Sequence record: NZ_CP086424.1
Length of the DNA: 64,000 nt
Direction: 5' to 3' (one strand)
From: a plasmid
Below are positions 3,399-61,772 of the stretch, piece after piece. The notes under the pieces were generated by a model. The model did no database searches. It was not told where the DNA came from and saw nothing but the letters and a program-made list of their open reading frames with translations. Position 1 is the first letter of the stretch, and every line of letters starts with the position of its first letter. The position numbers and the translations under genes were made by a program.

Positions 3399-3414
3399 CT
3401 TTCACATGTGAAAG
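3399..3414. repeat. Perfect 16-bp palindrome CTTTCACATGTGAAAG, copy 1 of 4
   Basis: Identical copies at 20818, 46361 and 61757. Confidence 0.9.
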
Positions 3415-3474
3415 TCTCCCCGCTGTCCACCTCGCACACTCCAAACGCCCAAACGCCCAAATAACTTGTCTATC

Positions 3475-3499
3475 TGCCCAAAATGGGCGCGTAAGCGTC
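3475..3499 (+). promoter_or_regulatory. AcaCD/SetCD-like activator box, copy 1 of 7
   Basis: TGCCCAAAATGGGCGCGTAAGCGTC matches the 7-copy consensus. It lies 105 bp upstream of the 3580 operon. Confidence 0.55.
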
Positions 3500-3579
3500 C
3501 GATAGAAAGTAATTGTTAGTGAGATATTGACTACACGGAATATGGCTATATCATAGAATCATAAAATGATGCTGTAAAA

Positions 3580-3966
3580 GTGATATGTATGCCAAAGCAA
3601 GCAAATCATCTCCGTTTGAAGAAACCTTGCGCCAACTGTCCATTCCGGAAGGAGGGCGCTATCGAGCTGGCCCCTGGGCGATTAGAAGGCATCATCAACG
3701 ACATCGTTGAAAACGACATGACGACGTTTCATTGCCACAAGACCGTGCACTCAAAGTCAGGTGGTGAATGGGATGAAGAGGGTAACTATGCACCTTCGGG
3801 ACAAGAGTCGATGTGTGCCGGTGCTGCGGCTTACTTGATGAAAATAGGCAGGCCGACAGTGGCTATGCGAATTGCCTTTGCGTTTGGTGATGCAAAGGTG
3901 TCCGACTGGGACGAAGCTCAAGAGCTGGTTGTCGAGCCTTTGGTACAAGGGGACCGAAATGAGTAA
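3580..3966 (+). CDS. Small Cys/His-rich hypothetical protein (CANCPF…HCH)
   Basis: ORF of 128 aa. GTG at 3580 or ATG at 3589. First gene after the activator box. Confidence 0.5.
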   Translation: MICMPKQANHLRLKKPCANCPFRKEGAIELAPGRLEGIINDIVENDMTTFHCHKTVHSKSGGEWDEEGNYAPSGQESMCAGAAAYLMKIGRPTVAMRIAFAFGDAKVSDWDEAQELVVEPLVQGDRNE

Positions 3967-4240
3967 GCGATATGCGGTAGTGCCGCATCCGAAACTGAAA
4001 CGAGAGTACAAAGGTCGGCTGGTCAGAACTACTCGGGTACTAAAAAACGGCTGGGGGTTGATCCCTCTAGGGGCTGTGGCAACGGTCACGCATCAGTCTC
4101 CCAAGGGATCAGAACTGACCTTTGAACCATGCGACTGCTGCGGCCTGAAAGCCATTATCAGTCATGTAAGCATGGACTCCATTGAATTTATCGAACCGAT
4201 TACTGAGGAAGAAGATGGACGAGAACAAGCTCAACATTGA
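3959..4240 (+). CDS. Small hypothetical protein with a CDCCG motif
   Basis: The ATG overlaps the stop of the upstream gene by 8 nt (translational coupling). 93 aa. Confidence 0.45.
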   Translation: MSKRYAVVPHPKLKREYKGRLVRTTRVLKNGWGLIPLGAVATVTHQSPKGSELTFEPCDCCGLKAIISHVSMDSIEFIEPITEEEDGREQAQH

Positions 4241-4889
4241 AACGGTCGATGGGCACAACGAGCTGGTAGTCAGCTTTTTGTCCAGAATGGTAAGCCTGAG
4301 TGACGAGGAAAAGCAGACAGTATTGTCCTGCCTTCCGGACACCGGCAAACAAACAATCACCCAGCTCTATGAGGCGCTGCGTTCTCAAGGGCACCAGGAT
4401 CTTGCAGAGAAAGTCGAACCATACCTCCAGCAGGGGGTGTTTGGGCCGATCTTCGATAACGCCAAGTCCAAGGTGTTCGTTCGGGACGAAGCGCCTTTTT
4501 TCCTCATGGATGAAAATCCTTTGAACTGGGATGACGCTAAAGCATTCAATCGCCTACGTATGAGTACGACCTGTGTTCTTGGCCGTGGCGGCTGGACTAT
4601 CGGTGAGCGCTTTGATGACCGCTTTGATACCGAGGTGGGCGGAACACAGCTTATCGTCACTCAGTCACTCAACGAAAAAGGTGAGATTGAAGGAGGACTT
4701 CCTACCTCGATGTCGCTGAATGACTTTGCTGAGTTCCCTAAACAGCCAAGGCCTCCTCAAATAGTCGATTACCAGGAAGACAAGCGATACACGCTTGAGG
4801 AAGCGGAAGCTATCCCTGAGCTCGCACCAGTGGTTCAGCGTCTGAAAGAGCGCATCGAAGAGTATGAGGAGAGAAGAGCCCATGATTGA
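4215..4889 (+). CDS. Hypothetical protein with an acidic C-terminus
   Basis: ATG at 4215 preceded by GAGGAAG. 224 aa. Confidence 0.55.
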   Translation: MDENKLNIETVDGHNELVVSFLSRMVSLSDEEKQTVLSCLPDTGKQTITQLYEALRSQGHQDLAEKVEPYLQQGVFGPIFDNAKSKVFVRDEAPFFLMDENPLNWDDAKAFNRLRMSTTCVLGRGGWTIGERFDDRFDTEVGGTQLIVTQSLNEKGEIEGGLPTSMSLNDFAEFPKQPRPPQIVDYQEDKRYTLEEAEAIPELAPVVQRLKERIEEYEERRAHD

Positions 4890-5388
4890 CCTGACATGCC
4901 GCCTTTGTGCTGGTTCCGGTGTTTATGACTTTTCCCCTTCCAAAGAAACCTGCGGTATGTGCCAAGGGCATGGGAAATTTGTTGACGCCAAAGCAATGCT
5001 GGTGGCTGCCATCGAGCTGGCAAAGAAGCAACGCGAGCCTGTCATTGAAGTGGTAATGGGGTTGGTGCTCCAGGGTGTGGATGTTAGAGGGAAGGAGCCT
5101 GGAGAGCGGTTCAAGGCTGCTCAGGCCTTTAACGCCCCAGGGCACAACCTATTACGATACGGGTGGGATGCTTGGGAGCTCTATGCCCTCCATGAGGGTG
5201 TAAGTCCAGAACTTGCATCGCTTGGCCGAAGTGTGATGCGCGAGTGGCATAGCCATTCATGGGGCCGGTTCAGTGGAGAGGTAGGCTTTAACGCCGCCGA
5301 GATCATGATCAAACAGGCCAAAGACAACCCAGAAAAAGCAGAAGAGCGCTGGGCGTTCCTGCTTAGTGAAGAATGGATGGTGGAGTAA
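4882..5388 (+). CDS. Small protein with an N-terminal DnaJ-type zinc-finger (two CxxCxGxG repeats)
   Basis: CRLCAGSG and CGMCQGHG near the N-terminus. The ATG overlaps the upstream stop. Confidence 0.55.
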   Translation: MIDLTCRLCAGSGVYDFSPSKETCGMCQGHGKFVDAKAMLVAAIELAKKQREPVIEVVMGLVLQGVDVRGKEPGERFKAAQAFNAPGHNLLRYGWDAWELYALHEGVSPELASLGRSVMREWHSHSWGRFSGEVGFNAAEIMIKQAKDNPEKAEERWAFLLSEEWMVE

Positions 5389-5705
5389 TTGTCGTGACAG
5401 AACAAACCAATAAGAAATTGATGCTGGATGAGTCTCCAGATATGCCCCTGCAATTCAAGTGGAGAAAGTTTGGTGGTGCGATTTTTACTGCCACGCAAAC
5501 AATGGAGCACGTCAAGGAAGGACGTAAGCTCGGGCCGACTCCAGCAGGGATGCTACCTCAAGAAGTGTGGCTGAACCGCCTGATCGCTATGGAAGAAACC
5601 CTGCCACGAGGGAAGTTTTTTGACAGATTCCGCCGCCGCGACAAAAACGAGCAGTATGACTTGGCCGCCGATCATCTCCGTCTTGTCGGAAAGAAAAAGC
5701 GATAG
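5373..5705 (+). CDS. Hypothetical protein with a basic C-terminus
   Basis: ORF of 110 aa overlapping the upstream gene end. An alternative GTG start lies at 5394. Confidence 0.4.
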   Translation: MDGGVIVVTEQTNKKLMLDESPDMPLQFKWRKFGGAIFTATQTMEHVKEGRKLGPTPAGMLPQEVWLNRLIAMEETLPRGKFFDRFRRRDKNEQYDLAADHLRLVGKKKR

Positions 5706-5713
5706 GGGGATAG

Positions 5714-60338: not shown

Positions 60339-60780
60339 CCGATACACGGCCAGGGAGTCTGACAAAAGTCGGATACTTCGGACCATAGGCTGGTGCAAGC
60401 GCAACCACCTTACACTTGCCGGTCTTCCATACGAGGACAATCTTGCAGGAAGTGATGGGATCAGCATAGAGATCATCACTCCTCCTGGTATGTCGCGGGA
60501 AATGTTGGAGCAAGCCGTCAGAGAGGGGTATTCAGAGCGAGATGTCGTAAGGCATCGCATTCTGGAGTGCCCTGTCGGTTGGTTCATGGAAGCTGATGGC
60601 AAGGCATTTGATCATGAAGTGTTCCACGATTACGTGGTGGCTCATGGTTATGGCGAACCTTCCAGCGAAGCCTATGAGCTGGCGGAGCGGTGGTTCTGGC
60701 AGGGCAACGATTATGCGTTGATAGCTGCGGAAATAGTTGCTCGTGATCTTTGTGTTCGTGATGACGAAGATGAGGACTGA
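60328..60780 (+). CDS. Hypothetical protein with an acidic tail (DDEDED)
   Basis: ATG 60328 with a GGAGG Shine-Dalgarno. Overlaps the upstream gene. Confidence 0.45.
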   Translation: MQLNRYTARESDKSRILRTIGWCKRNHLTLAGLPYEDNLAGSDGISIEIITPPGMSREMLEQAVREGYSERDVVRHRILECPVGWFMEADGKAFDHEVFHDYVVAHGYGEPSSEAYELAERWFWQGNDYALIAAEIVARDLCVRDDEDED

Positions 60781-60784
60781 TCCT

Positions 60785-61060
60785 ATGGATGCTGTAGCGC
60801 ATATAGCAGCAGATAACCTTGTACCGGCATGTGGAGGTGCAGAGAAGCCGTTTACCGTTAGTGGTAGACAGTGGCTTTACTGCTATCACCCAGCCAGTGG
60901 GAGGCACTGCTACTTAGACCTCGATAATGACCGTCCAGTCTGGCATCGAGGATTTCATCCTGCTTTTCATCCTGAGCTTGAGTTCGCTGATGAAGCTGAG
61001 TTGCTTCGACCAGTTGAGCGAAAGCCTGACCATGAAGAGCTGGAGGATTTTTACTTTTAA
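60785..61060 (+). CDS. Small Cys/His-containing protein ending ELEDFYF
   Basis: 91 aa. Confidence 0.45.
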   Translation: MDAVAHIAADNLVPACGGAEKPFTVSGRQWLYCYHPASGRHCYLDLDNDRPVWHRGFHPAFHPELEFADEAELLRPVERKPDHEELEDFYF

Positions 61061-61117
61061 CCCACGGGGCCGCTCTTCCTGATGGGAGACGGTCCTCCAT
61101 TCTCAAAGGAGAAGACC

Positions 61118-61309
61118 ATGAAAGATCACAGTCAAACGATTGTGTTCCCTGGGAACAATGTTGAATCACTTGCTGAGGCTAACGCCATGTTGAGCGCTGT
61201 GTCGGAAGATGCACGTAAAGCCAGCAATACGGAAGACAAACGTGACCTTGAATCGCTTCAAGGCTGGCTGGAAGAGAACATCAATTCTCAACTGGCAGGC
61301 GTGAAGTAA
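61118..61309 (+). CDS. Small hypothetical protein
   Basis: 63 aa, AAGGAG Shine-Dalgarno. Confidence 0.4.
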   Translation: MKDHSQTIVFPGNNVESLAEANAMLSAVSEDARKASNTEDKRDLESLQGWLEENINSQLAGVK

Positions 61310-61377
61310 CTATGACTGTAACCCCACTGGGGGCTTCATGCCCCTGTGGGGGCATGGTGCCCGTAAAAGGAGTCACC

Positions 61378-61731
61378 ATGAATGCAGTGAAGATGATCCA
61401 GAAGGAAAACCAGCTTGAGCTGCCGCTTTTCTTCCTGGATGAAGAGCCGAAGACCGCAGAAGTCATTCCATTTGAGCCAAAGCCTGAATGGACTGATGAT
61501 GAGGTAAGGCAGTTACGTGATGGGCTTTTATGGCATAGCCTTAGAGTCCTTGCTGATGGTCGAGCTGGAAGTGAAATCAAGCAGGAAACGATGGCTTGGG
61601 TGATGTCCGATGAGGTACATCCATTCTCATTTGTGGTCTGCTGCGATGAAGCAGGTTACGATCCATCTGGAGTAAGGGAAGGCGTGAAGTCTATCCTAAA
61701 CCGCTTAGCGCGGGTTAAAGCGGGGGGTTAA
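61378..61731 (+). CDS. Hypothetical protein
   Basis: 117 aa, AAGGAG Shine-Dalgarno. Confidence 0.45.
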   Translation: MNAVKMIQKENQLELPLFFLDEEPKTAEVIPFEPKPEWTDDEVRQLRDGLLWHSLRVLADGRAGSEIKQETMAWVMSDEVHPFSFVVCCDEAGYDPSGVREGVKSILNRLARVKAGG

Positions 61732-61756
61732 CCCCCTGCTTTCCCAGTGGCATCGA

Positions 61757-61772
61757 CTTTCACATGTGAAAG
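61757..61772. repeat. 16-bp palindrome CTTTCACATGTGAAAG, copy 4
   Basis: Flanked by the inverted repeat GCTTTCC…GGAAAGC. It lies 50 bp upstream of promoter core E. Confidence 0.9.

Follow-up and report, generated by a model that had tools for sequence, protein, structure and literature searches.

Four dispersed palindromes in an IncC plasmid are very probably part of its published set of parS partition sites

Why should a plasmid carry one palindrome, unchanged letter for letter, at four dispersed places? The question is raised by a stretch of 64,000 nucleotides from the plasmid record NZ_CP086424.1 (the whole of this 64-kb stretch is referred to below as the window), in which the 16-mer CTTTCACATGTGAAAG occurs exactly four times, at 3399-3414, 20818-20833, 46361-46376 and 61757-61772. 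An earlier description made from the letters alone (the sequence-only reading) had pointed out four identical copies at 3399, 20818, 46361 and 61757, had judged them to be above chance, and had proposed an operator for a dimeric helix-turn-helix (HTH) regulator or a nicking or recombination site. The copies are all exact and their number does exceed chance: base composition predicts 1.3e-5 exact copies, and 100 dinucleotide-preserving shuffles of the window gave a mean of 0.59 matches at up to three mismatches, with none of the 100 reaching four. The window holds no additional sites of this kind, even with up to three mismatches allowed. Our answer is that the four palindromes are, with high confidence, four of the 13-14 parS (centromere-like) sites of an IncC conjugative plasmid; they are already known, being identical to the published parS of IncA and IncC plasmids.

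A chance origin of the palindromes was ruled out by the shuffles and the base composition. An origin as a repeat or as transposon ends was also considered and was ruled out by the unrelated flanks of the four copies, which share no sequence except for the activator boxes 3' of copies 1 and 2; because the flanks have nothing else in common, the copies do not belong to any longer dispersed repeat. No known RNA family was found at any of the four sites in Rfam. Isolated half-sites (ACTTTCACA; compare the ParB of P. aeruginosa) are absent from the window, every occurrence of the half-site lying within one of the four full sites.

The replicon itself is readily placed, as about 1000 IncC-typed plasmids match the first 8 kb of the window with at least 99% identity and the genes follow in the order parA, parB, 053, methylase genes, topoisomerase III, mobH, traD, the traL-A operon, traN and the ssb-bet-exo region. 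In the IncC plasmid R55, parS comprises 14 inverted repeats with an invariant 14-bp core, TTTCACATGTGAAA, and AAAC/GTTT flanks, which together make up a 22-bp unit (Kiss et al., Nucleic Acids Res 2024, PMC10954446). All four window copies carry the exact core, and each has the G and T adjoining it on at least one side (on the plus strand at sites 1, 2 and 4, on the minus strand at site 3). The original description of a perfect 16-bp palindrome thus captures a real common 16-mer but not the full element, since the true perfect palindromes span 18, 20, 16 and 18 bp at sites 1 to 4 and the published unit spans 22 bp. The four predicted parS sites and their settings are the following.

3396-3417, plus strand: parS site 1, AAAC-TTTCACATGTGAAA-GTCT, the counterpart of R55_55/vcrx036 in the published list; intergenic, with the minus-strand open reading frame (ORF) 3119-3262 (vcrx035-like) and ORF 3589-3966 (vcrx036-like) diverging on either side.
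20815-20836, plus strand: parS site 2, GAAC-TTTCACATGTGAAA-GTTT, corresponding to the published R55_74/vcrx068 site; ORF 20129-20791 ends 5' of a GC hairpin (20795-20813), and the site comes directly after this hairpin; the vcrx068-traL operon, in which a small ORF precedes traL, has its activator box downstream of the site.
46358-46379, minus strand: parS site 3, corresponding to the intragenic R55_91 site; the lipoprotein gene that contains it (45906-46766, minus strand) adjoins traN, and on the gene strand the site reads TTTC-TTTCACATGTGAAA-GTTT, which codes for F-L-S-H-V-K-V-S.
61754-61775, plus strand: parS site 4, CGAC-TTTCACATGTGAAA-GTTT, corresponding to the published R55_109 site; intergenic, 26 bp past the stop codon of ORF 61378-61731 and ~150 bp before ORF 61923-62267.

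The R55 site names were assigned on NZ_CP025231.1, a complete IncC plasmid, from the order of the sites and the genes around them. This plasmid has 13 cores, all of them exact, and its interval from the site at the parA promoter (PparA) to the site in the recombinase gene contains exactly four cores, which are the four copies of the window. The interval from parAB053 to xerC in R55 also holds exactly four sites, R55_55/vcrx036, R55_74, R55_91 (intragenic) and R55_109 (PMC10954446), so that by order and gene context the window copies stand at published positions of the IncA/C backbone. The reference is not collinear with the window beyond ~26 kb, owing to a blaCMY-2 duplication. In a logo of its 13 sites neither the core nor the G at +8 varies, and the T at +9 is present in 12 of the 13, in agreement with the published logo. 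Nine of the 13 sites are intergenic, compared with a backbone that is only ~6% non-coding (P ~4e-9).

The function of the published parS has been established experimentally. In electrophoretic mobility shift assays (EMSA), purified IncC ParB shifts the consensus, PparA and SGI1 (DR2) sites, to an unusually high position, and does not bind the 14-bp core alone, while inserting 4 bp into the middle of the site causes the loss of both ParB binding and incompatibility (PMC10954446). Cloned parS sites confer stabilisation in cis and centromere-type incompatibility, and a parS replicon is stabilised only when ParA and ParB are both supplied; ParB also represses PparA (PMC10954446).

The proteins expected to act on the sites are encoded at the left end of the window, where three genes and the edge of a fifth site are found.

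Left of the window, with window bases 1-2 (plus strand): parS site at the parA promoter (fifth site); the core lies just outside, and the two bases TT are the end of its GTTT flank.
48-833, plus strand: parA, a Walker-type partition ATPase (Pfam AAA_31, CbiA and ParA; annotated as ParA family).
837-2018, plus strand: parB, 393 amino acids, KorB family (Pfam ParB_N, HTH_ParB and KorB; annotated as a KorB-domain protein).
2067-2339, plus strand: gene 053, a 90-amino-acid winged-helix protein (Pfam HTH_43), third gene of the parAB053 operon.

A cognate Walker-type ParA and an HTH-containing ParB are therefore present on the same replicon, as in a type I ParABS system. The best solved relative of the ParB is the clamp structure of RK2 KorB (8qa8), followed by Noc and Spo0J; identity to KorB is low, with a phmmer E-value of 9e-21 over ~155 residues. 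The ParB contains KGERRWRA, which aligns with the arginine patch (GERRxRA) that binds cytidine triphosphate (CTP) in Spo0J, Noc and KorB, and which is invariant among ParB homologs of 56-62% identity. In those homologs the N-terminal and HTH parts are nearly invariant and the central acidic linker is variable. Published EMSA and the domain content both bear on the identity of the binder: the operator idea of the sequence-only reading is borne out in so far as an HTH protein encoded by the plasmid binds the site symmetrically, but the protein is ParB, the main role is partition and the site is not an operator reserved for use with the AcaCD activator, and the proposed small 053-like or Acr-like HTH repressor gives way to a 393-residue protein of the ParB/KorB family. 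Gene 053 adjoins parAB in distant relatives too (76-99% identity), and it is conserved more strongly than ParB, at 76% versus 57% in Vibrio sinensis and 88% versus 65% in Photorhabdus caribbeanensis. According to the literature as summarised in PMC10954446, 053 is required for plasmid maintenance and dispensable for parS-dependent stabilisation.

The fifth site lies at the promoter of the par operon. On NZ_CP025231.1 the parA promoter reads TTGCAG-17 nt-TACAAT-CTTTCACATGTGAAAGT and is followed by TTGGGGG, the first base of which is the first base of the window; the arrangement is also written TTGCAG-17-TACAAT-CTTTCACATGTGAAAGTTT, and the palindrome ends 2 bp before window base 1. It thus abuts the -10 box, and its position is kept in the related plasmids pAhD4-1 and pMT14.

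On this basis, the four sites would work as follows. A ParB dimer would bind each 22-bp unit, made of the 14-bp core and the AAAC/GTTT flanks; by analogy with chromosomal ParB/Spo0J and RK2 KorB, parS may then load ParB as a CTP-dependent clamp that spreads onto adjacent DNA, and we infer from the same analogy that clamps of IncC ParB load and slide in a CTP-dependent manner. The ParA ATPase would move the dispersed ParB-DNA complexes apart such that each daughter cell receives a plasmid, and ParB at the PparA site, next to the -10 box, would repress its own operon.

Several points weigh against this account. To our knowledge, nobody has shown that all 13 dispersed sites are needed in partition, and in RK2 a single KorB site is enough for partition, the other KorB sites being regulatory. 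We also know of no demonstration of CTP binding, clamp formation or spreading by IncC ParB. The outer flanks are imperfect at site 1 (GTCT on the right) and at site 3 (TTTC on the left), and the affinity of these two sites could therefore be lower. Finally, none of the four window copies served as an EMSA probe in the published study (PMC10954446); binding of ParB to them is predicted from the identity of core and G/T flank, and their individual occupancy in vivo is likewise presumed.

Conservation in related elements, which had been set beforehand as a test of the palindrome, was found: the core is kept in IncC type 1 plasmids, pB39_C, IncA, pAhD4-1 and pMT14. Around site 1, IncC type 1, pB39_C and IncA all have AACTTTCACATGTGAAAGT unchanged. 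The DNA on its right diverges up to the activator-box core CCCAAAATGGG, which is again invariant in all three; between the two there is heavy substitution and a length difference of 7-8 bp among IncC types and IncA. Site 4 is conserved in IncA. Further away, the Aeromonas plasmid pAhD4-1 (NZ_CP013966.1), whose ParB is 62% identical, has 15 exact cores, and V. furnissii pMT14, with a ParB of 56% identity, keeps the exact core; in both plasmids one exact copy lies ~65 bp upstream of parA. A 17-mer scan of the GTDB species genomes (596 Gb) returned at least 120 stretches. The matches listed cluster in Vibrio, Shewanella, Marinobacter, Idiomarina, Pseudoalteromonas and Photorhabdus, and a single contig often carries several of them; tblastn placed homologs of ParA/ParB/053 (57-93%), MobH, TraD or TraL beside some of them. 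As ~70 matches to a 17-mer are expected by chance in 596 Gb, little can be read into single matches in odd taxa; the palindromic 18-bp matches and the multi-copy matches are numerous and well in excess of chance. The order hairpin, parS, activator-like box, small ORF and traL recurs on Vibrio and other contigs with TraL proteins of 73-85% identity. We also observed that the listed matches include metagenome-assembled genomes labelled Heimdallarchaeota, Roseburia, Bacillus and Cytophagales, which may be chance matches or mis-binned contigs.

The intragenic copy allows conservation of the DNA to be separated from conservation of the protein. The placement of copy 3 within a lipoprotein coding sequence, put forward in the sequence-only reading, is reasonable, as the product of ORF 45906-46766 (minus strand) begins MKKALITTVALAVAALSGCAS and has an LSGC lipobox. 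In the Pseudoalteromonas ortholog, which is 45% identical in amino acids and 55% in local nucleotide sequence, a 26-nt run across site 3 is identical; the chance of finding the 22-nt block identical is P ~2e-6. In pAhD4-1 the flanks are AAAA/TTTT instead of AAAC/GTTT, with T for G at +8 in 14 of the 15 sites and G retained in the parA-promoter copy alone, and the corresponding lipoprotein peptide is FISHVKFS instead of FLSHVKVS, both changes falling exactly at the two differing flank bases. The intragenic site is thus conserved beyond the needs of the protein and tracks the flank of its lineage, so that selection acts on the DNA site itself. The base pair at +-8, which is needed for ParB binding, is C/G in IncA/C plasmids and pMT14 and A/T in the pAhD4-1 lineage, a sister lineage of IncA/C, and could be a partition-specificity switch between related MOBH plasmids.

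Could the palindrome serve a purpose other than partition? A nicking or site-specific recombination target (a secondary oriT, a Xer/dif-like site or an integrase site) would agree with the perfect palindrome and with the presence of one of the 13 plasmid copies inside a tyrosine-recombinase gene. We nevertheless regard it as highly improbable: the 13 copies are dispersed, co-oriented and symmetric, have neither the spacer nor the arm asymmetry of recombination cores, and show no link to the positions of mobH or mobI, and the site accompanies parAB homologs in distant elements. The palindrome is a binding site for ParB, and the 4-bp central insertion removes binding and incompatibility together (PMC10954446), which leaves this part of the sequence-only reading unsupported. 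Of about 1000 near-identical plasmids, none was seen to have a rearrangement junction at one of the sites, although no systematic examination was made. A restriction-modification or methylation target, kept for epigenetic control through the central ACATGT/CATG, is scarcely credible either. The site does have a typical 6-bp palindrome in its middle, and the window encodes methyltransferases (2392-3027, 6218-7645 and one cytosine methyltransferase ORF), but conservation spans 16-22 bp, far more than a methylase site, the half-site is confined to the four full sites in the window, and ParB binding explains the full length.

The likeliest of the alternatives adds a second function to parS and is compatible with it. 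At sites 1 and 2, and perhaps others, ParB, with or without a partner, would act mainly on transcription, modulating adjacent promoters either from the bound site or by sliding, in the manner of distant silencing by RK2 KorB; the predicted targets are the AcaCD-dependent or constitutive promoters of vcrx035/036 and vcrx068-traL. Two activator boxes, both outside parS, give the context for this proposal.

3476-3488, plus strand: AcaCD-type activator box GCCCAAAATGGGC, in the vcrx035/036 promoter region.
20883-20895, plus strand: AcaCD-type activator box GCCCAAAATGGGC, in the promoter of the vcrx068-traL operon.

We take the GCCCAAAATGGGC motif to be an AcaCD box from its likeness to the AcaCD motif. 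A second basis for the name is PMC10954446, and the vcrx035-36 and vcrx068 promoter regions have been cloned for AcaCD/SgaCD reporter assays (PMC8373056). From palindrome to box the start-to-start distances are 77 and 65 bp for copies 1 and 2, so that the earlier figure of 60-76 bp upstream was roughly right.

Judged on the arrangement of the sequence and on the published data, a mainly transcriptional role of these sites is possible rather than probable. Copies 1 and 2 are followed by AcaCD-type boxes across gaps of 61 and 49 bp, respectively, the order parS, activator box, traL is retained in distant relatives, and the closest solved relative of ParB is KorB. ParB represses at PparA, where the site adjoins the -10 box; in SGI1 PS004, mutation of parS beside an AcaCD box lowers the SGI1 copy number; and crosstalk at vcrx012, vcrx036, vcrx068 and traF was proposed by the 2024 authors (all PMC10954446). 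The vcrx035 and vcrx036 promoters were constitutive in the reporter strain of PMC8373056; this strain presumably lacked an IncC plasmid and with it ParB, and the constitutive expression may then reflect the absence of a repressor. A good promoter-like site for the minus-strand ORF, TTGATA-17-AATAAT (3368-3340), lies ~30 bp from site 1. Set against this, sites 3 and 4 have no neighbouring activator box, copy 3 is intragenic, and neither promoter overlap nor fixed phasing extends to all copies. The preference for intergenic positions might mean no more than that a 22-bp palindrome is tolerated there. Spacing between parS and the box varies by 7-8 bp within the IncC and IncA plasmids, and in relatives the gap is anywhere from ~10 to ~117 bp, which argues against an operator of fixed geometry and would suit a clamp that slides better than a contact at a set distance. 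We advance only tentatively, as an idea that is on balance doubtful, that IncC ParB is a KorB-like global regulator as well as a partition protein, with clamps from parS sites at operon boundaries sliding into promoters. Candidate targets would be vcrx035/036, vcrx068-traL, traF and vcrx012, with 053 possibly as partner. If this is true, ParB tunes AcaCD-dependent transfer genes and so couples plasmid partition to conjugation.

Several further features are found at site 4. The larger inverted repeat described there in the sequence-only reading is real and can be delimited.

61737-61792: imperfect palindrome of 56 bp, centred on site 4, with arms that are 82% complementary.

Its outer arms are TGCTTTCC and GGAAAGCA, and the arm pair can also be given as TGCTTTCCCAGTGGCATCGACTTTCACA and TGTGAAAGTTTGTGCCCCTCGGAAAGCA; IncA retains the outer arms, with a weaker inner part. 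Just 5' of it, a G/C hairpin at 61717-61742 overlaps the stop codon of ORF 61378-61731. The "promoter core E" that had been placed beside copy 4 was not borne out as a promoter: a sigma-70 promoter scan of 61500-62000 gave no match, and a repeated intergenic element of ~70-90 bp is found there instead. This element, with the consensus GATTTTGnTCTCTnnnGAGAGCGAAAAGTGCGATAGCTGGTCGCCAAAAACAAACAGCA and two short hairpins, has five copies in the window, in the ssb-bet-exo region (47696, 48700, 53538, 57382 and 61784), the last beginning ~10 bp after site 4. It probably corresponds to the "promoter core A-E" series as a whole, and it matched neither a sigma-70 promoter nor any Rfam family. At all five of the 13 NZ_CP025231.1 sites whose flanks are asymmetric, including site 3, the better-conserved GT flank points downstream with respect to the local gene, which with n = 5 is not significant.

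Two further observations concern other parts of the window. The G+C fraction falls to 0.376 at 26001-28000, compared with ~0.51 elsewhere; this segment adjoins the end of collinearity at the ISEcp1/blaCMY-2 insertion region and is probably acquired DNA. A Guanidine-II (mini-ykkC) riboswitch, a known family, was identified by Rfam at 29702-29746 on the minus strand (47 bits) and, judging from the blaCMY-2/sugE region of the reference plasmid, probably lies upstream of the sugE efflux gene.

IncC plasmids are important vehicles of multidrug resistance and depend on parABS to be inherited stably; the parS sites also explain how SGI1 stabilises itself and evicts its helper plasmid. As the parS of these plasmids has already been published, our finding adds nothing new on the identity of the palindrome. 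The only additions made here are the occurrence in marine Gammaproteobacteria, the C/G versus A/T difference at +-8 and the DNA-level constraint on the intragenic copy. For plasmid biologists it is of modest interest in three respects, namely the possible regulation of adjoining transfer operons by ParB, the possible action of IncC ParB as a KorB-like CTP-dependent sliding clamp, and the possible definition of partition-specificity groups by flank variants of the shared core among MOBH elements of marine Gammaproteobacteria. A switch at +-8, if true, lets related MOBH plasmids escape both partition incompatibility and parS mimicry of the SGI1 type.

How do these sites compare with known systems? 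Chromosomal parS, with the consensus tGTTTCACGTGAAACa bound by Spo0J/ParB, is also a 16-bp palindrome, shares the half-site hexamer TTTCAC/GTGAAA, is present in several copies per replicon and is served by a ParB with the GERRxRA motif. It differs from the IncC site, which is longer at its centre by two base pairs (CAC-AT-GTG versus CAC-GTG) and has other flanks, and it is clustered near the origin, whereas the IncC sites are spread over the whole replicon.

The KorB operators (OB, TTTAGCSGCTAAA) of the IncP plasmid RK2/RP4 are likewise about a dozen dispersed palindromes, many of them at promoters and one at the promoter of the par/central control operon. The likeness extends to the proteins, as the window ParB has a KorB domain and KorB is its best solved relative, and to the replicons, both being broad-host-range conjugative plasmids. 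OB differs in sequence and in size, 13 bp against a 14-bp core in a 22-bp unit. For KorB, global repression, cooperation with KorA and TrbA, and CTP-dependent sliding have been demonstrated (PMC11790492, PMC13584720); for IncC ParB, binding, partition and repression of PparA are what has been shown.

The closest likeness is to the parS of the IncA/IncC parAB053 system itself, which has the same core, the same G/T right flank, the same four positions, the last of them upstream of the R55_109 homolog, and the same cognate ParB, and is the same thing (PMC10954446). Nothing substantive sets the window copies apart from it: the 16-mer is the part common to the copies in the window, and the functional unit is 22 bp. 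The parS mimics DR1 and DR2 of SGI1 have the same 22-bp motif, are bound by IncC ParB and lie 10-25 bp upstream of AcaCD boxes (PMC10954446). They differ in being carried on a mobilisable island that has no parAB of its own and that hijacks through them the system of the helper plasmid, which is destabilised, whereas the copies in the window are the plasmid's own.

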